Below are positions 1-62,857 of a DNA stretch of 64,000 nucleotides, one piece after another (position 1 is the first letter of the stretch; every line of letters starts with the position of its first letter). A model generated the notes under the pieces. That model worked only from the letters and a program-made list of their open reading frames with translations. It was not told the origin of the DNA and ran no database searches. The DNA comes from an uncultured virus (IMG/VR IMGVR_UViG_3300010160_000038) (Duplodnaviria > Heunggongvirae > Uroviricota > Caudoviricetes): IMG/VR virus record IMGVR_UViG_3300010160_000038. One strand, written 5' to 3'. Position numbers and translations under genes: made by a program.

Positions 1-43
1 TCACTTAGCAGGTGGTGCTAGAAACCCTTCTAGTTTACTTTCT
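1..43 (-). tRNA. tRNA-Ser(GCT), 5' part only (runs off window edge)
   Basis: Minus strand AGAAAGT-AA-ACTAGAAGGGTTTCTAGC-ACCAC-CTGCTAA-GTGA: D arm and anticodon loop CT-GCT-AA directly after tRNA-Trp. Confidence 0.65.
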
Positions 44-48
44 ATTTG

Positions 49-119
49 CACAGATGGCAAGAATCGAACTTGCTCGACATGGATTTTGGAGATCCACCGG
101 TTACCTCAACCTCACCTGT
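49..119 (-). tRNA. tRNA-Trp(CCA)
   Basis: Acceptor ACAGGTG/CATCTGT, anticodon arm GGAT-CTCCAAA-ATCC, T arm GCAAG-TTCGATT-CTTGC. Confidence 0.9.
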
Positions 120-138
120 ATTTATCTTAACTATTATT

Positions 139-930
139 TTAATAGTTGATTTTTTTTAATATTAACTCATCTATATAAGATAATAATTCAATTATATATT
201 CTTCTTTTGATTTATTATCCATTTTTTTATAATCTGACCATCTTATTCTTATAATATCCCAACCTAATTCTTCTAAATATTTATTTCTCCTAATATCACT
301 TTGTAATATTTTAGTGTCATAATAATGTTGATCACCATCTATTTCAATATCTATCTTTTTATCAGGTATTGAAAAGTCCAACTCATATAAACCAATTCTA
401 AAATCTCTTATTATTCCTAAATTTTGTTTTTCAAAAATACTCCAAAAGTACTTCTCTGGGTAAGACTCATTTCTACTATGGTTTAACAAATAAGGTACTT
501 TATCAGGATTGTTTAATAAAAACTCTTTCCTACTTTTTGAAATTTTATTTTTTGTTTCTTCTGATAGTTTTTTTCCTTTATTTGCCATTGATAATTTTTC
601 CTTTTTCCTTTTTAATTTTTCTTCATAATTTGGATCTTTTTTACAACTATTAATATGTCCTCCCAATTTTAATCCTGAATCAAAAATTGAATGACAATAT
701 TTACATTCATGATTATTAATCTCTTTTTTTATCTCTTTCTTAATGAAAGTTTTACCACAACTTTTTTTATGTCCAATTAAAGAATGTCTTTTATCATACT
801 CTTTATTGCATTTATCACATATATATTTTTCTCTATCTGGATTTAATAAACAATATTTTTGATGCTTTAATACATCATTTTTTTTATTACCTCCAATATA
901 TTCTTTATTACAAAATTTACAACTACTCAT
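139..930 (-). CDS. Free-standing homing-type endonuclease (Zn fingers + NUMOD3-like + DUF559/Vsr-like nuclease)
   Basis: Repeated CxxC..H..C fingers, NUMOD3-like KGKKLSEETKNKISKS, C-terminal ELDF..IEIDGDQH..GWDIIRI. Confidence 0.8.
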   Translation of the reverse strand: MSSCKFCNKEYIGGNKKNDVLKHQKYCLLNPDREKYICDKCNKEYDKRHSLIGHKKSCGKTFIKKEIKKEINNHECKYCHSIFDSGLKLGGHINSCKKDPNYEEKLKRKKEKLSMANKGKKLSEETKNKISKSRKEFLLNNPDKVPYLLNHSRNESYPEKYFWSIFEKQNLGIIRDFRIGLYELDFSIPDKKIDIEIDGDQHYYDTKILQSDIRRNKYLEELGWDIIRIRWSDYKKMDNKSKEEYIIELLSYIDELILKKINY

Positions 931-1056
931 CTACTATATATAAATAAGTTGAATTCTCCTATTTTATGCTATGAGATTTTTATTTTATCCTCACATATTT
1001 AGGAACAACTATGTTGTTGTTTCAATTAAGTATTTTTGTGTGATTTATTACTACAC

Positions 1057-1162
1057 TGGTTCTGGTTTAACGGAAGGAGGTTGTTGGTCGGAACGCTCGG
1101 TTACGATCCGAGCTCTATTCCTTTTCAGGGAATCGCTTTCACCAGATTAGCTTAAACCACGA
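1057..1162 (-). tRNA. tRNA-Phe(GAA)-like gene with abnormal acceptor stem
   Basis: D arm GCTAATCTGGTGAAAGC, anticodon ATTCC-CTGAAAA-GGAAT, T arm CTCGG-ATCGTAA-CCGAG; the first 3' end (CCA at 1087-1085) does not pair with the 5' strand, a second one 27 nt further does. Confidence 0.6.
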
Positions 1163-1167
1163 TTTAG

Positions 1168-1240
1168 GGTGTATTAGGAATTTCGAAATCCCGACCTTTG
1201 GTTCCACAAACCAACGCTCTTCCTCTGAGCTAAACACACC
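1168..1240 (-). tRNA. tRNA-His(GTG)
   Basis: G-1, acceptor GTGTGTT/AATACAC, anticodon TTGGT-TTGTGGA-ACCAA, T loop TTCGAAA, discriminator C. Confidence 0.92.
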
Positions 1241-1257
1241 ATATGAATTTATAAAAT

Positions 1258-1292
1258 AAAAAAAACCCAAGTTTAAATTAAACTTGGGTTTT
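1258..1292 (-). terminator. Intrinsic terminator (attenuator 3:4 hairpin) ahead of tRNA operon
   Basis: AAAACCCAAGTTT-AATTT-AAACTTGGG followed by 8 T on minus strand, ending 18 nt before tRNA-His. Confidence 0.8.
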
Positions 1293-1314
1293 AAAAAAAA
1301 TATTTTATAAAATA

Positions 1315-1404
1315 TTAATTAATATAAAATATAATTCCAGACCCAAGTTTGTTGCTAAACCAACTTGAATTACTAAAATGTTTATTTTTATTAATTGTTT
1401 TCAT
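1315..1404 (-). CDS. Putative attenuator leader peptide, 29 aa (MKTINKNKHFSNSSWFSNKLGSGIIFYIN)
   Basis: Hand-translated ATG 1404 to TAA 1315; contains antiterminator AAACTTGGGT (1350-1341). Confidence 0.7.
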   Translation of the reverse strand: MKTINKNKHFSNSSWFSNKLGSGIIFYIN

Positions 1405-1446
1405 TATGTTATATATTAAATTTTTATTTTCCTTTTTTAATTATAT

Positions 1447-1456
1447 TGCAAATTTA
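1447..1456 (-). promoter_or_regulatory. Bacteroidota-type -7 promoter element TAAATTTGCA for leader/tRNA operon
   Basis: Matches TAnnTTTG; a TTAATATATA late-type motif also lies at about 1419-1410. Confidence 0.5.
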
Positions 1457-1492
1457 ATAAAAGTTTTTTAATATGCAATATTTTTTTATATA

Positions 1493-2179
1493 TTATTTTT
1501 TAAATTTACTTTTTCTTAACAGATTATTTAATCTATTGACACCTTCATCATCTATTTTATAATCAGATATAAATTGTTTAAAATCTTTTATTAAATCTTC
1601 AGGTATTCCATCTAATATATTTATTTCATTTGGTAAAGATAATTTAATTGGAAATATAGCTTTTATAACCTGAAAATGCTTAGAATCATCTGCCATATTT
1701 TCTACATCACAACCAATATTAGTTAATTGTTTTATAACTTGTTTAATAGCTATAGATAATTTTTCATCTATATCAATTGGTTTAAAATCATTACTTGGGT
1801 TTGTATATTGATAATTTACTTCTAATCTAATATCAGTAAATCTTCCTTTTCTAATTTTATTTAAAAGTTTTTGAGCATATTTTAAATCTGATTTTAAATC
1901 ACCATAATCTTCTTCTACCATTCCAAGATAATCCCACCATGATTTTTGATGTATATCAAATCCTATCACTAATTTTTGACCATTTTTATATACAAGTAAA
2001 GAATAACAAGGGACAACATCATGTCCTAGTATATCTGAAATTTCATACATAACATCATCAATATCGAAAATAATAGGATTATCTTTTGATATTATTTCCA
2101 TTAGATGATCACCAAATTCAAATTGTTTATCAACTATTTTACTTTCTGTTATGAGGTTAAAATTTTTTAAATGTTTCAT
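1493..2179 (-). CDS. Hypothetical protein with CTS-like leader (MKHLKNFNLITES)
   Basis: ORF; TTAATATATA upstream. Confidence 0.7.
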   Translation of the reverse strand: MKHLKNFNLITESKIVDKQFEFGDHLMEIISKDNPIIFDIDDVMYEISDILGHDVVPCYSLLVYKNGQKLVIGFDIHQKSWWDYLGMVEEDYGDLKSDLKYAQKLLNKIRKGRFTDIRLEVNYQYTNPSNDFKPIDIDEKLSIAIKQVIKQLTNIGCDVENMADDSKHFQVIKAIFPIKLSLPNEINILDGIPEDLIKDFKQFISDYKIDDEGVNRLNNLLRKSKFKK

Positions 2180-2218
2180 ACTTATAATATATTTTTATTT
2201 ATATATTAAATTATTAAA

Positions 2219-3055
2219 TTATTTTATTGGATATCTTTGTTTCCAACCTATTTCACCTACTTTGTAAACATTTAAAAAATTAGTTTTATTATAACCAGCA
2301 TTTACTATATCTTTTGCCATGTTATAAACATAACCATTTCCTTTACTACCTTCTATTCCAGGTATGTGTAAGAAAAAAGCACCATGTCCTAAAAATTGAG
2401 AAATAGATGGTGAATCTTCCCATTGGTCATCACCTGAACTAGCACAGTTAACACCGAATGTTGATGAATGTAATAGTTTAATATTATAATCAGCTCCTAC
2501 TTTTTCAGGAAATTTATTCATATAATACCCCATTGCAATTTGATCATCATTGATATTTCCATCATTTACCCAATTTATACACCAATTATACATTTCTAAT
2601 AAATCTTTAGCTTTTCCTATAATAAGTCCTGTGTTTACAAATTGTCTTTTAGGTCTTGTAGGTAGTTCATTAGAATAATAGTACCAATAATCATTTAATT
2701 CTACACAATTCCCACCTTCATTAAATTCAATAAATCCATTGCATAAAAGTTCCATACTAACAACAATTGGCTTATTAAATTCATTAAAACCAGTTTCAAA
2801 AGCTAATGGTGATCTAACACATAAAACATCTCTACCATCACAAGTAACACATAATCTATTAGGGTCGATTGTTTCTAAGTATTCAGCATACAGTTTCATT
2901 TTTGTAATAAAACCTTCCCATTTAACACCTTCTCCTATTAATATATTATCCCAACCATTATTATCTAAAGTTTTTAATAAAACTTCTGTATTTTTTGTTG
3001 GGTTTGTATCAGCAACTATTGCTAATGGTTTTTTACCAGGGTATATTATATTCAT
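2219..3055 (-). CDS. PLOD/procollagen-type glycosyltransferase domain protein
   Basis: W.GF..K, DGRDV, FVNTGLIIG, DDQ motifs resemble the GT domain of lysyl hydroxylases. Confidence 0.65.
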   Translation of the reverse strand: MNIIYPGKKPLAIVADTNPTKNTEVLLKTLDNNGWDNILIGEGVKWEGFITKMKLYAEYLETIDPNRLCVTCDGRDVLCVRSPLAFETGFNEFNKPIVVSMELLCNGFIEFNEGGNCVELNDYWYYYSNELPTRPKRQFVNTGLIIGKAKDLLEMYNWCINWVNDGNINDDQIAMGYYMNKFPEKVGADYNIKLLHSSTFGVNCASSGDDQWEDSPSISQFLGHGAFFLHIPGIEGSKGNGYVYNMAKDIVNAGYNKTNFLNVYKVGEIGWKQRYPIK

Positions 3056-3067
3056 AAAATTATATAT

Positions 3068-3958
3068 TTATTTTAAATTTTTAAAAATGTGTGTAATGAC
3101 ATCAACTGTCCACCCATTTCCTAACATTTCATATCTTTTAGAAGAAGAAACACCAGATGTATAATCGATTGGAACTCCTTGTAATTTTTCTACTTCATTT
3201 TCAGTTAATCTTCTAATCATCCCATTTGGTAGATATGTTTTTGTTAAATGTCTAGCTGCACCATGTGATGAGGCTGATAAACAACACATTATACCATCAT
3301 GTCTATATACATTATCTTGTTGGTGTTTACCTGCTTTGTGTCTTATTATTTCATTTTCACTCCATTTATAGTTTAAATCTAAAGCTGATAATTGTTTATC
3401 AGTTAGATAATATTCATCACTTGCTTGTTCTAGGATATCATTTAAACAATGGTTATAAGTAGTAGGTATATTTTCAACTTTTATATTAGTCCAATATAAT
3501 CTTGGTCTATTTTGTGGTACAAATACTTTTGAATTAATTTCAATTGGTTCTACACCTAAAGCTTCTGTTATAATATCTTTCCATTCTTTTCGCATTTTTA
3601 CATTCTCTAAAAGAAACAATATATTTGGATTTGATTTTTTCAAATCATTTAAAACACGAACATATTCCCAGAATAAACCACTCTTGCCATTAAATCCATC
3701 TCCTTTACCAGAGTTGCTAAAACTTTGACAAGGACTGCCACCAATTAATAAATCTATTTTTGGTAAATTTTCCACATTGATATCTAAAACATTGCCTAGA
3801 TGGATTGTATTTGGATAATTTTTTTTTGTGACTTTAATAGATGAATCTTCAATTTCAGAAGCAAAATAATTATCATATTCTATACCTATTTTATTTAAAG
3901 CTATTTGACCACAAGATATGCCATCAAATAAACTTAAAACATTTTTAATTTTACTCAT
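3068..3958 (-). CDS. DNA (cytosine-5) methyltransferase
   Basis: LSLFDG, GGSPCQ, ENV, QNRPR, GNGWTV. Confidence 0.95.
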   Translation of the reverse strand: MSKIKNVLSLFDGISCGQIALNKIGIEYDNYFASEIEDSSIKVTKKNYPNTIHLGNVLDINVENLPKIDLLIGGSPCQSFSNSGKGDGFNGKSGLFWEYVRVLNDLKKSNPNILFLLENVKMRKEWKDIITEALGVEPIEINSKVFVPQNRPRLYWTNIKVENIPTTYNHCLNDILEQASDEYYLTDKQLSALDLNYKWSENEIIRHKAGKHQQDNVYRHDGIMCCLSASSHGAARHLTKTYLPNGMIRRLTENEVEKLQGVPIDYTSGVSSSKRYEMLGNGWTVDVITHIFKNLK

Positions 3959-3962
3959 ATTG

Positions 3963-5036
3963 TTATTTTAAATTTTTAAAAATGTGTGCTATGACATCAA
4001 CCGTCCACCCATTTCCTAACATTTTATATCTTTGGTTATCTGAAACATAATTAGTATAATCAATCGGAACTGTTTGTAATTTTTCACATTGATTTGGTGT
4101 TAATTTGAAAAGTTCTTTACCATTTGTTATATTCATTTTATTTCCGGAGTTTGTGGTTAATGTTGGGTGTTTACCATCTATATGATAGAATCTTTTGCTC
4201 ATATCAAAAGTTGATAATTTGTATTCAAATTCTGTTATTTTATTATCAAATTTATCATTAGTTATATTTAAACACTCCTTTAGTTTAAACCAATATTCAG
4301 CATCAGGTATTGAAAAACTATTATCTAATCTAAACCAATGTTCAACCATTGTTTTAGGTGCATTGCAATAATTAGATATTTCTTTTATAGTTTTATTTTT
4401 ATGTTGTCTTAAAAAAATTCCTAATTCTTTTTTATCTATTTCATATTTTCTGACTTTAACTTCAACATCAGATTTATTCATTATAATTTTATTAGTTCTT
4501 TGATTTATTATATTTAAACCTAAAACATCTGCAATAGTTTCATTTGATGAGGGTAGTTTTGATAAATCTACATTTATATTAGTCCAGTATAATCTTTTTC
4601 TTTGTTGTGCTGAAAATCTGCTACTGCAAATTTCAATTGGTTCTACACCTAATTCTTTTGTGATAATATCTTGCCATTCTTTTTTCATTTTAACATTTTC
4701 TAAAAGAAAATATTTTGGCTTAACTTCTCTTAAAATTCTAACATATTCCCAAAATAAACCAGATTTACCATCAAACCCCTTACCATTGCCTGCTTTTGAA
4801 AAGGATTGACATGGTGAACCTCCAAATAATAAATCTATTTCAGGTAAATCATCAGTTTTTAACTTGGTAATATCTCCTAATTGGATTGTATTTGGAAAAT
4901 TATTTTGTGTAACTATTATTGCATTTTTATCAATTTCAGATGCATAATAGTTTTTGTATTTTATAGATAAATTATTTAAAGCAATTTGTCCACAAGATAA
5001 ACCATCGAATAAACTTAAAACATTTTTTATTTCCAT
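3963..5036 (-). CDS. DNA (cytosine-5) methyltransferase with extra insertion in variable region
   Basis: LSLFDG, GGSPCQ, ENV, QQRKR, GNGWTV. Confidence 0.95.
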   Translation of the reverse strand: MEIKNVLSLFDGLSCGQIALNNLSIKYKNYYASEIDKNAIIVTQNNFPNTIQLGDITKLKTDDLPEIDLLFGGSPCQSFSKAGNGKGFDGKSGLFWEYVRILREVKPKYFLLENVKMKKEWQDIITKELGVEPIEICSSRFSAQQRKRLYWTNINVDLSKLPSSNETIADVLGLNIINQRTNKIIMNKSDVEVKVRKYEIDKKELGIFLRQHKNKTIKEISNYCNAPKTMVEHWFRLDNSFSIPDAEYWFKLKECLNITNDKFDNKITEFEYKLSTFDMSKRFYHIDGKHPTLTTNSGNKMNITNGKELFKLTPNQCEKLQTVPIDYTNYVSDNQRYKMLGNGWTVDVIAHIFKNLK

Positions 5037-5038
5037 TA

Positions 5039-5959
5039 TTATTCAATATTTTTAAAAATATGTGCTATGACATCAACAGTCCACCCATTACCTACCATTT
5101 TTCTTATTTGAGAATCAGATATTGTATTTGGGAAATAATCATCTGGTATAGTTTGTAATCTACAATATTCTTTAATAGTGTAATATCTAAATGGGAGATT
5201 ATCTTTAAAGGCATTTGGGTGTCTACCAATTGGCATAGTTGTCAACACATTATCTTTTGAAACAGTTGTTAAACAGTTTGATTTATCAACATTACTTGCC
5301 CTTACTTCTAAACATTGTGTAATAGGAATTTCTTTATTATAATCTTCTCTTTTACCATTTGAATTTAATCTTCTTCCTAATATAGTTGCTTTATTTAATT
5401 TCCTACCTCTTATAGCCGATGGATTTAACATATCATCAGTTTCTAATATATCAATCAATTTTATATTTCTATCAATTGGTTGAACTACATTTGGTATATT
5501 AGTCCAGTATAAACGAACACGATTTTGTGCGCTTACTAAAGAAGAATTTATTTCAATTGGATCAACACCAAGTTCTTCTGTTATTATATCTTGCCATTCT
5601 TTTTTCATTTTAACATTTTCTAAAAGAAATAAAACATCAGGGTTTACTTTTCTAACATCATTTAAAACTCTGACATATTCATAAAATAAACCAGATTTGC
5701 CATCAAAACCAGTTCTTTTACCAGCTGATGAAAACGATTGACAAGGTGAGCCACCAAATAGTAAATCAATTTTAGGTAAAATATTAGTATCTAATTTAGT
5801 AATATCACCTAATTGTATTGTATTTGGAAAATTGTGTTGAGCAGCTTTAATTGCATGTTTATCAATTTCACTTGCATAATAATTTAAATATTCTATACCA
5901 GCCCTATTAAGAGCAATTTGCCCACAAGATAAACCATCAAATAAACTTAATACATTCAT
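5039..5959 (-). CDS. DNA (cytosine-5) methyltransferase
   Basis: LSLFDG, GGSPCQ, ENV, QNRVR, GNGWTV. Confidence 0.95.
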   Translation of the reverse strand: MNVLSLFDGLSCGQIALNRAGIEYLNYYASEIDKHAIKAAQHNFPNTIQLGDITKLDTNILPKIDLLFGGSPCQSFSSAGKRTGFDGKSGLFYEYVRVLNDVRKVNPDVLFLLENVKMKKEWQDIITEELGVDPIEINSSLVSAQNRVRLYWTNIPNVVQPIDRNIKLIDILETDDMLNPSAIRGRKLNKATILGRRLNSNGKREDYNKEIPITQCLEVRASNVDKSNCLTTVSKDNVLTTMPIGRHPNAFKDNLPFRYYTIKEYCRLQTIPDDYFPNTISDSQIRKMVGNGWTVDVIAHIFKNIE

Positions 5960-6000
5960 AGATTATATATTTTAATTTTGTTTATTTGTTTTAAAAATTA

Positions 6001-6010
6001 TATATTTGTA
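6001..6010 (+). promoter_or_regulatory. Bacteroidota-type promoter element TATATTTGTA
   Basis: TAnnTTTG just before rnhA; also seen before genes at 8211, 10505, 32826, 34944, 20104(-) and 59764(-). Confidence 0.55.
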
Positions 6011-6012
6011 TT

Positions 6013-6477
6013 ATGAATGAAAAAATAATAGAAATTTTTACGGATGGCGCATCCAAAGGTAATCCTGGTAAAGGAGGATATGGTATATTAATGAAATTTA
6101 ATGGAAAGGAAAAGGAAATATCAGGTGGATATAAATTAACAACTAATAATAGAATGGAATTGATGGCTGTTATTGTGGCATTAGAATCTATTAAAAGAAA
6201 TGACTGTCCTGTGCATATTTATTCAGATTCAAGATATGTTTTAGATTCTATTACAAAGGGTTGGGTTTATAATTGGGTTAGAAAGCCTAATTTTGCAGAT
6301 AAAAAGAATAAAGATTTATGGTTAAGATTTTTAAAAATAGAAAAGAATTTTAATGTTAGATATACTTGGGTCAAGGGTCATAATGGTCATGATGGGAATG
6401 AAAGAGCTGATTTATTAGCAAACACTGCATCTCAAAGTAGTGAATTGAAAATAGATGTTGGTTATGAAGGAGTTTGA
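6013..6477 (+). CDS. rnhA: Ribonuclease HI
   Basis: FTDGA..GNPG.GG, TTNNRMEL, SDSRY, KNKDLW, WVKGH.G..GNERAD. Confidence 0.97.
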   Translation: MNEKIIEIFTDGASKGNPGKGGYGILMKFNGKEKEISGGYKLTTNNRMELMAVIVALESIKRNDCPVHIYSDSRYVLDSITKGWVYNWVRKPNFADKKNKDLWLRFLKIEKNFNVRYTWVKGHNGHDGNERADLLANTASQSSELKIDVGYEGV

Positions 6478-6676
6478 AAATGGTGATGATGTAATATTTA
6501 CAACAAAAGATAAGTATATTTTTGAAGCTAAAATTGAAAAAATATATCGTTCTTCTTTTTATATATCTTATCTTAATGAAGATGGTAAATTAAAGTATGC
6601 GACTGTTTTTGAAAAACAGATAAAATTCAATTATAAAAAACATAGAAATAATAGATTAAAGGAATTAGGTATATAA
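6464..6676 (+). CDS. Small hypothetical protein with RNNRLKELGI tail
   Basis: ORF, ATG at 6464 overlapping rnhA end. Confidence 0.6.
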   Translation: MKEFENGDDVIFTTKDKYIFEAKIEKIYRSSFYISYLNEDGKLKYATVFEKQIKFNYKKHRNNRLKELGI

Positions 6677-6720
6677 TTTTTTGTTTAATTAATTTAATAT
6701 ATAAAAATAAAAATTAAATT

Positions 6721-6897
6721 ATGAAAATTAGAAAATTTAGTGAAATTAATGAGGCTAAAAAAGATGATAAAATTGAAAAAATAGAATCTTATATTAGCAA
6801 AAATAAAAAAAACAAATCATCTTATGAAATGTATAATGAATTAAGAGATGAGTTTTCAGAGAAAGATTTGAAAAAATATTTTTATGATAACTATTAA
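6721..6897 (+). CDS. 58-aa protein with CTS-like leader (MKIRKFSEINEAK), below ORF-track cutoff
   Basis: Hand-translated; TTAATATATA about 20 nt upstream. Confidence 0.65.
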   Translation: MKIRKFSEINEAKKDDKIEKIESYISKNKKNKSSYEMYNELRDEFSEKDLKKYFYDNY

Positions 6898-6913
6898 AAA
6901 ATAATTATAATTT

Positions 6914-7510
6914 ATGTTTAGCAAATCTAAAGAAATTGGAAAAATAAATTTACCAGATTATAGAGGTGATCGTGTTTATATGCATGAATTCCTTATTGAA
7001 AATCCTAAAATGCCTGAAGGATATGAAAGATGGAATGAAACTTTGAAAGAGATTATATCACATTCTCCTAAAAAAACTGGTAAAGCCTACATAACTATTG
7101 ATGAAAAATTAGTTAAAGCTGGGAAATCTCATAGAAGAGGTGGTGCTCATGTTGATGGTAACTACCTATTTGGATGGGGTGGCGGCGGCGGCTGGTTAAC
7201 TGGTGAAGATGGTAGAGTTTTACCAAGAGAAAAACATGTTCAACAATATTGTTCTGATAAAGGGGGTATGTTGATAATTTCATCATATGAAGCATGTAAA
7301 GCTTGGAATGGTAAATTTGAAGGTGAACCAAATCAAGGTGGTGATTGTTCACATATTGATCTTTCTAAAATGGAAAGTTACAATCTTAAACCAAACACAT
7401 TATATTGGGGAAATAGTACTTTTATTCATGAGTCTTTGCCAATAGAAAAAGATGTTGAGAGACAGTTGGTAAGAATTACTTTACCAGCAGATTCTGAAGA
7501 ACTTCTATAA
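6914..7510 (+). CDS. Putative 2OG-Fe(II) oxygenase-like protein
   Basis: HRRGGAHVDG (HxD), distal IHESLP and RQLVRI. Confidence 0.6.
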   Translation: MFSKSKEIGKINLPDYRGDRVYMHEFLIENPKMPEGYERWNETLKEIISHSPKKTGKAYITIDEKLVKAGKSHRRGGAHVDGNYLFGWGGGGGWLTGEDGRVLPREKHVQQYCSDKGGMLIISSYEACKAWNGKFEGEPNQGGDCSHIDLSKMESYNLKPNTLYWGNSTFIHESLPIEKDVERQLVRITLPADSEELL

Positions 7511-7540
7511 AAAAAGCCACTTTAAAAGTGGCTTTTTTTT
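7509..7540. terminator. Bidirectional terminator AGCCACTTT-A-AAAGTGGCT
   Basis: Hairpin flanked by A and T tracts between convergent genes; copies at 21877 and 60422. Confidence 0.85.
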
Positions 7541-8154
7541 TAATATTTAATTTCTCTCCATTCAAAATAAACAGATTTATCAACTTGGTTTTCAATATAA
7601 CCTTCTGGATTATATTGTTCATTATTTAATATTACTAGATATTCATATCCAATGTGGAAAGATTTGATTCCAGGATAATCATCATTGTTTTCAATTTGTT
7701 TTTTATTATAAAATGAAAATTGATCATTTTTAATATCTAATCCTAATTCTTCTTTAATACCTCTTACTAAAACTTCTTTATGGTCTTCTCCAGATTTAAA
7801 TTTTTCTGCCGCTGAATATGGCATATTCTTTCTTTCTCTAACACGACCATCTTTGAAAACTTGTTTAGCTTCATAAAGTCTAATCCACTTACCATCTAAT
7901 TTATATAAAATTCTAGCACCAACGAATTCTACTTTTCTAACCAAACCACCATTTTCTTCTGATAAATTTGTTTCACCCTCTTCTATTTCATGGTATAAAT
8001 GTCCTAGTGTTTTAAATGTACCAGTACCATATAATGATGTATTAATGTTAAATTTTTTCAACATATCTAAAAATTCTAAATAAGAATTTGGTATTATAAC
8101 ATTCTCATTGATAACAGAATGAGAATATTCATTAAATAATTTTAAATTTTTCAT
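7540..8154 (-). CDS. Nudix-fold-like protein with CTS-like leader
   Basis: GEDHKEVLVRGIKEELGL resembles the Nudix box. Confidence 0.55.
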   Translation of the reverse strand: MKNLKLFNEYSHSVINENVIIPNSYLEFLDMLKKFNINTSLYGTGTFKTLGHLYHEIEEGETNLSEENGGLVRKVEFVGARILYKLDGKWIRLYEAKQVFKDGRVRERKNMPYSAAEKFKSGEDHKEVLVRGIKEELGLDIKNDQFSFYNKKQIENNDDYPGIKSFHIGYEYLVILNNEQYNPEGYIENQVDKSVYFEWREIKY

Positions 8155-8210
8155 AGATTATATATTAATATTTAAAATTAATTTTTTATATTTGTGTAAA
8201 ATTTTAAAAT

Positions 8211-9812
8211 ATGGAAAAACTGAAATTCTCAAAAGAATTAATGAATATCTTTTTGACAATGAAAGATAACAAAATTTCAAAAACACTTATTAGTATAGTA
8301 AATACTGAAAGTGTTATTAAACATAATTATATTGATATTGGTAAAACAAAGGATTTTTTAACATTCACACCTGTTGATAAAGCAAATGAAATAATTTCTA
8401 AAGGTAATCAATTATATGTAGTTGAAAATGATAATAGAAGATTGATTATAAATAGTGATAAGAATATAAATATCTTTGAAAGACTTGGTTTTGATAATAC
8501 TTCACCATTGGCATATAATGTTTCAAATGGTGAATATGGATATATTTTAGCTGAGGCAAAATCTAATATATCAGATAATGTTTATATTCTTTTTAAAAAT
8601 GAGGGAACTGGTAAACTTGGTGTTATAAATAAAGAGGGTGTTTATAAGGTTTATAATGAAAACACTGTCAAATCAAGTATTTGGTATGATTCTAATTATA
8701 CACCTATTGATGTAAATTTCAATAGAAATAATATTAAAATTGGTAAATTGATTAGAATATTACTATCTAGTCAAATAAGTGTTAGTGATTCAGAATTAGA
8801 AGAGTTTGTAAATCTATATAAATCAACTTATGATATTGTTTCTAATGTTATGTCAAGATTTGATGTAGTTAGTGGTGATGATATTAAAAAGTGGTATAAA
8901 AATGAAAATTATTATGATAATGAATCATCCGGAACATTGAACAACTCTTGTATGTCTAAATCACCAGATGATTATTTTAACATTTATTCTAATAATTCTA
9001 ATGTTAAAATGTTAATTCTTTATGCTGATGGTGGTGAAATCATTGATGGTGTTTATAAATCAGATAAAATTAAAGGAAGAGCTATTTTATGGGATTGTTT
9101 ATTAGATGATGTTCCTGGTAAATTTATGGATAGAATTTACACAAGATATGACAGTGATGTGAAGTTGTTTAAAAATTGGGCTGAAGAAAATGATTATTGG
9201 GTTAAAGAAGACCAAAATACACACACAGGTTGTAATTTAATAAAAGGTGGTAAAAAGATAAAACCAATTATTGTAGTAAAATTAGAAAATGCTAAATTGG
9301 ATTATTACCCATATATGGATACACTTTGTTATGTTAATATTGATAATAATACTTGTTCTAACAGTACAAGAACCATTAGAACAACTAGAAATACAAATGG
9401 TAGATGGGAAAATTATTATGAAGAAGTTGGTCAATATGAAGAGGAAGAGAGTGAACCGGAACCATTTCCAGGATTAGAAGAAATCAGTGAAGTAGAAATG
9501 CCCAATGACCCACTAATTCAAGTTGGACGTAGATTGAGAACAAGAAGCTATGGTGTAAATTACCACACATATGGGCATATTTATCAAGAAGATAATGACA
9601 TTTTAACTGATGGGGGTAGAGAAATTAATCAAGCTGAAGAAAATATTTCAGACTCTGAACAATTTGGAAATGGTAATGACGTTTTAACTGATGTACTACA
9701 ACGCTACATTTCTGTAGATATGGGTGTTTCTGAGCCTATGAATGATGGTAATGTTGTTCAGAATCAAAATGAAGAAGAGGATAATCTTTCAGACGAGCTG
9801 TTATCATTTTAA
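8211..9812 (+). CDS. SCM/GRA.LW/MDRIY/YPYMDT family protein, copy 1 (acidic tail)
   Basis: GTLNNSCM, GRAILW, FMDRIY, YPYMDT shared with three other ORFs in the window. Confidence 0.8.
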   Translation: MEKLKFSKELMNIFLTMKDNKISKTLISIVNTESVIKHNYIDIGKTKDFLTFTPVDKANEIISKGNQLYVVENDNRRLIINSDKNINIFERLGFDNTSPLAYNVSNGEYGYILAEAKSNISDNVYILFKNEGTGKLGVINKEGVYKVYNENTVKSSIWYDSNYTPIDVNFNRNNIKIGKLIRILLSSQISVSDSELEEFVNLYKSTYDIVSNVMSRFDVVSGDDIKKWYKNENYYDNESSGTLNNSCMSKSPDDYFNIYSNNSNVKMLILYADGGEIIDGVYKSDKIKGRAILWDCLLDDVPGKFMDRIYTRYDSDVKLFKNWAEENDYWVKEDQNTHTGCNLIKGGKKIKPIIVVKLENAKLDYYPYMDTLCYVNIDNNTCSNSTRTIRTTRNTNGRWENYYEEVGQYEEEESEPEPFPGLEEISEVEMPNDPLIQVGRRLRTRSYGVNYHTYGHIYQEDNDILTDGGREINQAEENISDSEQFGNGNDVLTDVLQRYISVDMGVSEPMNDGNVVQNQNEEEDNLSDELLSF

Positions 9813-15120: not shown

Positions 15121-15863
15121 AAATATCAGTAATAATGCAGTCATATTTATATGACTATCCAGGTTCAAGAAGTAATCCAGAATATAAATTTATAAGAGCT
15201 GTTAATAGTTTTTTAGAACAAACTTATATAGATAGTGAATTAGTAATAGTTTCAGATGGTTGTGATATAACCAAAAGATTATACAATGAAAACTTTTATA
15301 AAAATTCTAGAATAAAATTCTTTTATATTGAAAAAAGTGAATCACATATGTATAAAAGTGATAATAATTCTATTTATTATAGAGGATTTCCAAGACAAAT
15401 TGGTAGATTAAATTCAACAGGTGAAATTGTTACTTATATGGATTCAGATGATTTTATAATTCCTGAATATTTAGAGAATTTAATGTATTATTGGAATAAT
15501 AATTCTAGTTTAGATTGGATTATTAATAAAATGTGGTATGATAATATTTATATTAAAGAAAATCCAACTTTAGGCTATTATGATATATGGGAAACACATG
15601 AAACAGTTATACCAATTAATATAGAAGGTTTAGATAGTTTGTGGTTATCAAGTAAAGTTAAAAATGGTGTTGTTATGTCACCAGCTTTGTTATCACATAA
15701 AAATAATTGTTTAGTTCAATGGAATGATGTTTTATCTAATGGAACTATCAGTGAAGATAGTGATTTTAATAAAAAATTAAGAGAAATGTATCCAACAACA
15801 GGGGCTTTGATTGAATATCCAGGATATGTTAGATGTCATCTAAAAGATAGATGGGATTTATGA
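15117..15863 (+). CDS. Glycosyltransferase family 2
   Basis: ISVIM, ELVIVSDG, YMDSDD, SEDSDF; ATG 15117 overlaps the previous stop. Confidence 0.85.
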   Translation: MKISVIMQSYLYDYPGSRSNPEYKFIRAVNSFLEQTYIDSELVIVSDGCDITKRLYNENFYKNSRIKFFYIEKSESHMYKSDNNSIYYRGFPRQIGRLNSTGEIVTYMDSDDFIIPEYLENLMYYWNNNSSLDWIINKMWYDNIYIKENPTLGYYDIWETHETVIPINIEGLDSLWLSSKVKNGVVMSPALLSHKNNCLVQWNDVLSNGTISEDSDFNKKLREMYPTTGALIEYPGYVRCHLKDRWDL

Positions 15864-62060: not shown

Positions 62061-62857
62061 TTTTTAGATCTTTTAGGATTATAATTAAAAACTATAGTAT
62101 TGTTGTCAATTATATTCATTTTATCTTTTTGTTTATCGAATAGAATATGGCTATCTTTCTCAGGTGATGTAAATATGAAATAATCAACTGGTTTACTTTT
62201 TAGTGTTCCAATATTATAACTTTTTACTTCCCATTTATTATCTGATAATTTTTTAAAATATTTTAATGGTTTTGCTTGGAAATAAATCTCTTTTCCCGTT
62301 TTTTTATTGGTTGCTATAAAATCAATTCCAATTCTATCTTTGGTTGAACCTGGTAAAAAACCATCACTTATATCAAATCCTATATTAAATAATTCTTTTA
62401 TGATTTTATGGGCTTTACGTTCATTTAAAAAACCATTTAATAGACTATTACCATTTATTTCTAAAAGCTTACCAAAATGGCTATTTTTATCCTTAAATAG
62501 TGAATATTTATTATCCCAGACCCAAGTTTCAAATTCTTTTATATTATCAACTGGTTTTCCATATATTTCCTTTATATATTTTATAACCATTGGATTTGTA
62601 TCAAAGTAGTTAATAACAGACCAATCACTACCATCTTCTTCAAAATCATTAATTCCATTAAACTTCATAAGTTCACCTAATGTATATACACCAACAACAC
62701 CACCTCTTCCTCTATTACCTAATGATGAATCAGATTTCCAATTATTATTATAGTAATATCTTAAACATCTAAAAACTATTTGTTTAAATTTTAAACTAAA
62801 TTTTGAATCCTCAACTACACTTTCTGTTATATACTCTAAAAATTTTAATATATTCAT
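62057..62857 (-). CDS. Putative PD-(D/E)XK-like nuclease with CTS-like leader
   Basis: G..NE, KDRIGIDF, YFQAK. Confidence 0.5.
   Translation of the reverse strand: MNILKFLEYITESVVEDSKFSLKFKQIVFRCLRYYYNNNWKSDSSLGNRGRGGVVGVYTLGELMKFNGINDFEEDGSDWSVINYFDTNPMVIKYIKEIYGKPVDNIKEFETWVWDNKYSLFKDKNSHFGKLLEINGNSLLNGFLNERKAHKIIKELFNIGFDISDGFLPGSTKDRIGIDFIATNKKTGKEIYFQAKPLKYFKKLSDNKWEVKSYNIGTLKSKPVDYFIFTSPEKDSHILFDKQKDKMNIIDNNTIVFNYNPKRSKK

Follow-up and report, generated by a model that had tools for sequence, protein, structure and literature searches.

Predicted ribosome-mediated attenuators in front of the tRNA genes of large phages with Bacteroidota-type promoters

Leader-peptide attenuators are known from the trp, his, pheA, thr, leu and ilv operons of enterobacteria. 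Some attenuators are multivalent: the thr leader responds to Thr and Ile and the ilvGMEDA leader to Ile, Leu and Val. T-box riboswitches are untranslated and bind one uncharged tRNA directly. Two roles have been discussed for the tRNAs encoded by phages, help with codon usage and the replacement of host tRNAs that defence nucleases have cut, and to our knowledge the control that phages exert over their own tRNA genes is largely unknown. In searches of the open-access literature, PMC2965389 included, we came across no account of attenuation ahead of tRNA genes, be it in phages or in bacteria. The mechanism class itself is known, and the gating of phage tRNA genes by codon-matched leaders covering several amino acids appears to be undescribed.

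We analysed a 64-kb stretch of DNA from an uncultured virus (IMG/VR record IMGVR_UViG_3300010160_000038; the window, in the following, is this whole stretch). Sequence comparison and folding models make it quite likely that a ribosome-mediated (leader-peptide) transcription attenuator is located in front of its tRNA genes. As in the enterobacterial attenuators we found a short leader rich in control codons, here predicted to be translated, together with 1:2, 2:3 and 3:4 pairings that are predicted to exclude one another, of which 3:4 and a U run form an intrinsic terminator, and a stalled ribosome is predicted to favour the antiterminator. Unlike in those systems the regulated genes are tRNA genes and not biosynthetic enzymes, and the product would feed back on the sensor. 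The control codons are also mixed: three to nine amino acids are represented, usually by one to five codons each, and there is no run of a single amino acid. Furthermore, the phages carry Bacteroidota-type promoters. For positions 1-3000 of the window and positions 4600-8684 of its contig (L001) we obtained no match at E <= 1 to the Rfam leader families (His_leader, Trp_leader, Thr_leader and others) or to the T-box. With the multivalent attenuators the locus shares the sensing of several amino acids by one leader, but here up to nine codon families are involved, and which ones they are follows from leader to leader the tRNA genes located downstream. T-box riboswitches likewise use a terminator/antiterminator leader that reports tRNA charging and controls translation-related genes, whereas the signal here consists of frame-specific codons in an ORF.

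The window has a G+C content of ~25% and encodes a baseplate spike domain, a GH108 lysozyme and an NAPRTase; it is phage DNA. For one large protein the nearest cultured phages infect Flavobacterium and Chryseobacterium, and the top matches overall were two published huge-phage genomes with 43% identity. A TAnnTTTG-type box, which we take to be the Bacteroidota promoter consensus, sits 12-40 nt upstream of seven gene starts in the window, and a Shine-Dalgarno sequence close to the start was absent from every window gene that we looked at. Given the box, the absence of Shine-Dalgarno sequences and the nearest cultured phages, we took the host to be a member of the Bacteroidota.

The proposed attenuator lies on the minus strand downstream of a 228-aa gene that ends at 1493. 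The gene is followed by a promoter-like site (1449..1478), which consists of TTG at 1478-1476, a 19-nt spacer and a TAnnTTTG-type box at 1456-1449, and the same arrangement of TTG and TAnnTTTG precedes the leaders that we found in other phages. Downstream of the box an ATG opens the leader ORF (1315..1404, 29 codons plus stop). The 29-aa leader of the initial annotation is thus present, and its promoter was recovered as a promoter-like site. Codons 5 to 19 of the leader (1392-1348) are Asn, Lys, His, Phe, Ser and Trp codons. The nine codons at its core, codons 9 to 17 (1354..1380), read His, Phe, Ser, Asn, Ser, Ser, Trp, Phe and Ser.

Behind the leader we identified a terminator hairpin with a 14-bp stem (1292-1262) and a 3-nt loop, followed by a run of eight Ts that ends at 1258 (1258..1292 in total). 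Folded alone it reaches -16.0 kcal/mol. Its 5' arm, segment 3, occupies 1279..1292, and segment 4 (1258..1275) comprises the 3' arm at 1275-1262 and the T8 run at 1265-1258. Segment 1 (1358..1369) forms the 5' strand of a leader hairpin and segment 2 (1341..1353) can pair with either segment 1 or segment 3. The local hairpin of segments 1 and 2 has a folding energy of -8.2 kcal/mol, and in the minimum-energy fold segment 1 is lengthened by A/U pairs up to about position 1396. The minimum-energy fold of 1410-1250 contains both the 1:2 hairpin and the terminator (z = -5.2), and none of 200 shuffled sequences folded as well. The core of segment 2 (1350-1341), which lies inside the leader ORF, is letter-identical to segment 4 (1274-1265) over 10 nt. 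If the complement within the hairpin itself is set aside, only a single further exact copy of this core exists on both strands of the 64-kb window, at 62520 in an unrelated location. For the duplex of segment 2 and the terminator 5' arm we computed -14.3 kcal/mol compared to -7.4 ± 1.9 for shuffled upstream sequence. This pairing was equalled by 0 of 300 shuffles in one run and by 1 of 300 in another.

We also compared the alternative structures of the region directly. Between 1356 and 1255 the fold with the 2:3 pairing enforced (10 bp) has -20.4 kcal/mol and the terminator fold -22.2 kcal/mol, so the terminator is predicted to be somewhat more stable than the antiterminator at this locus. For transcripts that end before segment 4, the 2:3 pairing wins over 1:2 even without a ribosome. 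As the antiterminator forms without a ribosome in most of the truncated-transcript folds, these equilibrium folds do not support the presumed role of the 1:2 hairpin, which rests on a kinetic assumption. Sequence and full-length folds bear out the structural claims that had been made from the letters of the sequence, namely a terminator with U8 ahead of tRNA-His, a 1:2 hairpin, a segment 2 that copies segment 4 and can sequester segment 3, and the four-segment layout as a whole. The same logic recurs with different sequences in the other modules described below.

The terminator stem is followed after 23 nt by the first tRNA gene. This spacer has no TAnnTTTG box, and tRNA-His must therefore be reached through the terminator. 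The initial annotation had listed tRNAs for His, Phe, Trp and Ser behind the leader. Those for His and Trp were called, whereas the other two turned out to be atypical. The tRNA-His(gtg) carries an encoded G at position -1 (1167..1240 on the minus strand, with the tRNA itself at 1239-1167), was called by ARAGORN and scored 52.4 bits with Rfam. The next element (1096..1152, minus strand) resembles a tRNA-Phe(GAA) and gave a partial Rfam tRNA match of 29.3 bits across model positions 9-63 of 71 but no ARAGORN call, relaxed settings included. Its D, anticodon and T arms are intact and it retains a 3' acceptor strand with an encoded ACCA, but its acceptor stem is broken, the 5' strand being unable to pair with the 3' strand after the T arm. 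It is homologous to a called tRNA-Phe of the contig L053, with which it shares an unusual T loop. A 263-aa ORF with a DUF559 / MTES_1575 endonuclease-like C-terminus (139..930, minus strand) lies between the Phe-like element and a tRNA-Trp(cca) called by ARAGORN (48..119, minus strand); this ORF inside the tRNA unit is likely a homing endonuclease. Finally, the start of a Ser(GCU)-like cloverleaf occupies 1..43 (minus strand) and crosses the window edge; on the window's own contig, whose plus strand corresponds to the minus strand of the window, the whole element spans 6137-6224. Its minimum-energy fold has the five arms of a class-II cloverleaf, with GCU in the anticodon loop and a bulge in the stem below it. 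In L001 it was called neither by ARAGORN, relaxed settings included, nor by Rfam at E <= 1. The relaxed ARAGORN settings recovered none of the Phe-like, Ser-like and Tyr-like elements, the last of which belongs to a second module on this contig.

How well the leader fits its own tRNAs depends on which of these elements are counted. With the tool-called tRNAs (His and Trp) only 2 of 28 leader codons match, which places the window's own set at rank 14 of 20 tRNA sets, and the window module is the poorest fit to its own called tRNAs among the modules that we compared. If the Phe-like and Ser-like elements are included, 8 of 28 codons match. The earlier statement that seven of the nine core codons are read by the four tRNAs accordingly holds only if both atypical elements are counted. 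Compared with homologous units in other phages, the leader fits their tRNA sets better than its own, with 13, 11, 10 and 8 codons. In addition, the Asn and Lys tRNAs that had been predicted beyond the window edge did not appear in the 2.5 kb past it. An orthologous module in L053, with a leader ORF that aligns to that of the window, does carry two Lys tRNAs: its leader is followed by His, Phe, Lys(ctt), a weak CCA-loop tRNA and Lys(ttt). The leader core, the terminator and tRNA-His are conserved between the two modules, and the endonuclease gene of the window occupies the spot where its L053 orthologue carries the Lys tRNAs. With its broken Phe gene, the endonuclease insertion and the absent Lys tRNAs the tRNA unit of the window phage looks partly eroded; its His and Trp genes remain intact and the Ser-like element is atypical.

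Alternatively, the family could be real while this particular member has become a relic that now functions mainly as a leaky terminator before tRNA-His and tRNA-Trp. Such a reading would account for the fact that the tools call just these two genes, for the non-pairing acceptor stem of the Phe-like gene, for the endonuclease-like ORF in place of Lys tRNAs, for the lack of Asn and Lys tRNAs within 2.5 kb past the edge and for a leader that suits other phages' tRNA sets better than its own. We nevertheless consider it unlikely, given that the leader ORF, the identity of segment 2 and the terminator are all intact, that the leader contains both His and Trp codons and that the Ser-like element folds as a full cloverleaf.

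The contig of the window, which is 142 kb long, contains a second module. Past the Ser-like element we encountered an 83-aa ORF, ~1.5 kb of genes on the opposite strand, a promoter box and a tRNA-Met, followed by a 28-codon leader ORF (L001 8115-8201) and a terminator (L001 8223-8248). The tRNAs start 16 nt past this terminator and comprise Glu, Ala, a weak Tyr-like element, Ile(tat) and Gly. Codons 4 to 17 of the second leader read Ile, Ile, Asn, Ile, Glu, Ala, Ile, Gly, Tyr, Ala, Tyr, Glu, Ala and Gly. The first 13 bases of the two leaders are alike except for one, and the terminators are of one style; we therefore regard the two modules as paralogous, with different control codons.

We searched for related loci in several ways. 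The 228-aa gene has 40 protein relatives, and we compared nine metagenome loci of such relatives. Apart from the window's own contig none of the nine loci had tRNAs near the gene, and in the relatives a topoisomerase-like gene comes next after the homologue. Because the relatives have no tRNAs nearby, they provide no conservation test. When IMG/VR was scanned for exact copies of the terminator or of part of tRNA-His, neither pattern gave a match, and protein-guided scans of IMG/VR found nothing. Among GenBank phages DNA similarity was restricted to methylase or tRNA matches.

A degenerate pattern of the leader start shared by the two L001 modules, run against IMG/VR, was more productive and returned 37 loci. 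At ten of these, on nine contigs, an ORF of 27-29 codons is followed by tRNAs of matching amino acids, and the N-terminus of the window leader is common to all ten leaders. They represent three combinations: a leader rich in Phe, Glu, Asp and Ala stands before tRNAs for Phe, Glu and Asp, one rich in Leu, Val and Cys before Cys, Val and Leu, and one rich in Ile, Glu, Ala, Gly and Tyr before Tyr, Glu, Ile, Gly and Ala. The other 27 loci were rejected as ordinary long ORFs or as frames of 8-16 codons without a tRNA in the locus. We read seven of these 27 and observed the layout of leader, terminator and tRNA in none; two of them (L012 and L021) have in-frame stops. Run against bacterial and archaeal genomes, the leader-start pattern gave 59 loci, none with a tRNA module. 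Ordinary proteins of Bacteroidota commonly begin with this N-terminus, and beyond it the leader peptides are wholly different between modules.

In a second survey we inspected the small ORFs before each tRNA that follows a gap of >130 nt, across 11 loci that included L001, L047 and the tRNA regions of five of the nine contigs. A leader was present in 22 of the 59 tRNA-preceding gaps, and the remaining 37 had no recognised leader. This survey added, besides the L053 orthologue, a leader rich in Pro, Gln, Tyr, Thr, Gly and Lys before tRNAs for Pro, Gln, Tyr, Thr and Gly, a leader rich in His, Met, Ser, Ile, Asn, Trp and Arg before His, Trp, Ser, Ile, Asn and Arg, and a leader rich in Ser and Arg before Arg. 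In two of these contigs the Lys pair has a short leader of its own. ORFs of 13 codons rich in Lys and Arg precede tRNA-Lys pairs; we found no terminator for them, and one was kept as a candidate in the counts given below.

Modules of the same build also occur in a cultured phage. In Cellulophaga phage phi4:1 (NC_021788.1), which has a Flavobacteriia host, three of them split the tRNA array, and a stretch of 11 consecutive codons in the first leader serves every one of the seven tRNAs that follow. Past the first residues these leaders show no sequence relationship to that of the window. In the GenBank record gp075, annotated as a hypothetical CDS, overlaps only one of the three leaders, and none is annotated as regulatory. 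By DNA similarity among GenBank phages, these modules were found only in the records of phi4:1 and phi17:2. In the two published huge-phage genomes the Glu/Tyr and Ile/Gly/Ala tRNAs form separate units with their own leaders, and the leaders are split alike: Glu and Tyr codons abound in one, Ile, Gly and Ala codons in the other.

In order to quantify the match between leaders and tRNAs we compiled 20 non-redundant modules, from which six near-identical duplicates had been removed beforehand (three from L053-L055, two from L056 and one from L054). We counted all leader codons except the start and used the ARAGORN-called tRNAs of each module as its set; the null distribution was obtained by randomly re-pairing leaders and tRNA sets. 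The leader ORFs had been chosen by eye with the tRNAs known, and in one case a GTG start was preferred over the annotated start. Several of the 20 modules are relatives of one another and hence not independent. At the amino-acid level 233 of 547 leader codons match the module's own tRNAs compared to 106.7 ± 14.2 after re-pairing, for ORFs that were picked knowing the tRNAs. At the codon level with strict wobble rules the 20 partly related modules gave 195 of 547 matches compared to 85.8 ± 12.7. The observed value was reached in none of 200,000 re-pairings at either level, and an earlier run with 14 modules gave the same picture. The co-variation of leader codons with tRNA content in related phages, which the initial annotation had proposed as a check, is therefore strongly positive in this sample. 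Coverage was similarly high: for 103 of 108 tRNAs the leader of the same module contains one or more cognate codons, where permutation gave 59.0 ± 6.3 with a maximum of 84 in 5,000 permutations. The five uncovered tRNAs are three Met(cat), one Val(tac) and one Lys(ctt).

The location of the cognate codons within the leaders is informative as well. They cluster at codons 4-17, where 144 of 276 codons are cognate, compared to 47 of 231 from codon 18 onwards (20 modules). They are also specific to one frame: cognate triplets make up 195 of 547 in the ORF frame compared to 54 of 527 and 67 of 527 in the other two. The leader triplets are complementary to the anticodons of the downstream tRNAs, as would be expected if the leader RNA sensed these tRNAs directly by codon-anticodon pairing in a T-box-like manner, but an enrichment in the frame of the start codon alone, the fixed distance from stop to terminator described below and the lack of a T-box or other Rfam match in window 1-3000 and L001 4600-8684 make this very improbable. 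The same low probability covers the idea that the small peptide is the functional product, against which the wholly different sequences beyond a generic N-terminus argue.

The structural elements recur throughout the 20 modules. In 19 of them a hairpin of -11 to -20 kcal/mol with a T run starts 19-31 nt past the leader stop; the sole module without a terminator is that with the 13-codon Lys/Arg leader. From the terminator to the first tRNA we measured 6-23 nt in 11 modules and 64-858 nt in eight, and long gaps (e.g. 197-858 nt) hold extra promoter-like boxes or endonuclease ORFs. The best partner strand of the terminator 5' arm, corresponding to segment 2, is located inside the leader at codons 14-26, past the control codons, and its sequence varies between modules in step with the terminator. 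The 2:3 duplex was matched or beaten by at most 9 of 300 shuffles in 11 of the 19 modules. In the other eight, the second L001 module among them, between 11 and 208 of the 300 shuffles did as well. We then applied a crude ribosome model, in which the transcript is masked to 13 nt past the A-site codon and ends before the 3' arm of the terminator. With the modelled ribosome on early codons the terminator 5' arm pairs upstream in 18 of 19 modules. Once the ribosome has reached the stop codon, all 19 lose this upstream pairing (at most three arm bases paired).

The least probable explanation is that the hairpin is the ordinary terminator of the upstream gene, that the small ORF arose by chance and that the tRNAs are transcribed by unregulated read-through or from a promoter of their own: terminators of the same style do stand directly behind many genes of this phage, an open frame of 29 codons is not rare at ~25% G+C and the block is absent beside the relatives of the 228-aa gene, but a promoter-like box separates that gene from the ORF, the 10-nt identity to the terminator arm was matched by at most one of 300 shuffles, the ORF is conserved in the L053 orthologue, the codon-tRNA match is family-wide and frame-specific, and tRNA-His follows the terminator closely with no promoter box between them.

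Thus the attenuator interpretation proposed at the outset is supported by the co-variation and by the recurring four-segment logic, as far as sequence and folding models can tell. Under this interpretation transcription would start at the promoter near 1450 and the 29-codon leader would be translated. A freely moving ribosome would cover or pass segment 2, segments 3 and 4 with the U8 run would form the terminator and RNA polymerase would stop 23 nt before tRNA-His. A ribosome that is delayed within the first half of the leader, at an Asn, Lys, His, Phe, Ser or Trp codon, would leave segment 2 free to pair with segment 3; the terminator would then not form and transcription would enter the tRNA genes. 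We infer the translation of the leader, the direction of the switch and its physiological trigger from codon content and predicted structure. As the leader is spelled in the codons of the downstream tRNAs, the circuit would supply these tRNAs on demand and would switch itself off when enough of them had accumulated. Expression of these tRNA genes is probably limited to times at which the ribosomes lack the tRNAs in question.

On a more tentative level, large phages with Bacteroidota-type promoters might split their tRNA arrays into blocks that are gated separately, each by a small 'test gene' that probes for each codon family whether the infected cell still decodes the phage messages, and thereby sense the loss of host tRNAs and supply the missing ones. 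We consider such a sensor possible though less than probable. The causes of tRNA loss that come into question in this reading are anticodon nucleases, host shut-off and a mismatch in codon usage. A triggering of the read-through by host nucleases in particular is purely conjectural.

For practical purposes the leaders offer a readout, from sequence only, of which tRNAs share one transcription unit, and they may flag atypical tRNAs that are missed by gene finders. If the attenuator interpretation is true, a textbook mechanism would gain a new class of target genes and would reach phages with Bacteroidota-type promoters, and a codon-matched attenuator of this kind would amount to a demand-driven and self-limiting supply of tRNAs. 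If the more tentative reading as a sensor of host tRNA loss also proved true, the modules would constitute a counter-defence circuit and the first known case in which the decoding activity of tRNAs feeds back on their own genes.

The tRNA genes of the window's phage include atypical elements. The Phe(GAA)-like tRNA on the minus strand (1096-1152, with flanks to about 1060) keeps its D, anticodon and T arms intact and encodes an ACCA; the pairing partner of its 5' acceptor strand is instead a segment lying 26 nt farther 3'. Its unusual T loop is shared with the called tRNA-Phe of L053, the phage contig which carries the orthologous unit. At the window edge we found a class-II cloverleaf that resembles tRNA-Ser(GCU) and has a bulge in its anticodon stem (minus strand, 1-43, corresponding to positions 6137-6224 of L001, the longer locus on the window's own contig); neither ARAGORN nor Rfam called it. 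The second module of L001 includes a Tyr(GTA)-like tRNA of 67 nt that lacks a long variable arm (8425-8491; Rfam 29.4 bits). In huge-phage contigs ARAGORN reported four-base-anticodon tRNAs and one CTA-anticodon tRNA (L049 3706, L054 7442, L056(-) 9148 and 12410). TGA or TAG codons occur in frame in some unrelated matches to the leader pattern (L012/L021) and may be a sign of recoding.

Short ORFs were also observed next to other tRNAs. In two phage contigs a 13-codon Lys/Arg-rich ORF lies directly 5' of a tRNA-Lys pair (L050 2872-2913 and L055 1795-1836); we found no terminator for either. They may reflect another mode of control that works without a terminator, or they may have arisen by chance. 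On L001 a small ORF starts 4 nt past tRNA-Gly and runs off the locus end (8656-8684), and this may be a third leader.

Elsewhere in the window, three C5-cytosine DNA methyltransferase genes occur in tandem (3068-5959, minus strand), two scored with Pfam and the middle one assigned by eye. A TnpB-like ORF with OrfB_IS605 and Cas12f1-like TNB domains lies within the phage genome (15946-17160, minus strand).

In the metagenome relatives L002-L006 a topoisomerase-like gene directly succeeds the homolog of the 228-aa gene, behind a conserved promoter-like motif. This gene order indicates that in the window's phage the whole tRNA/leader block is an insertion at this junction. Inside the unit, a 263-aa ORF (139-930, minus strand) combines Cys/His-rich repeats with a DUF559/MTES_1575 endonuclease-like C-terminus. 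As Lys and Trp-like tRNAs occupy its position in L053, it is likely a homing-endonuclease insertion. Two other phage contigs carry an endonuclease-like ORF between the leader/terminator and its tRNAs (L048, about 2110-2955; L056(-), about 15268-15520), one of them with an HNH motif. The leader/terminator/tRNA modules seem to be hot spots for insertion.
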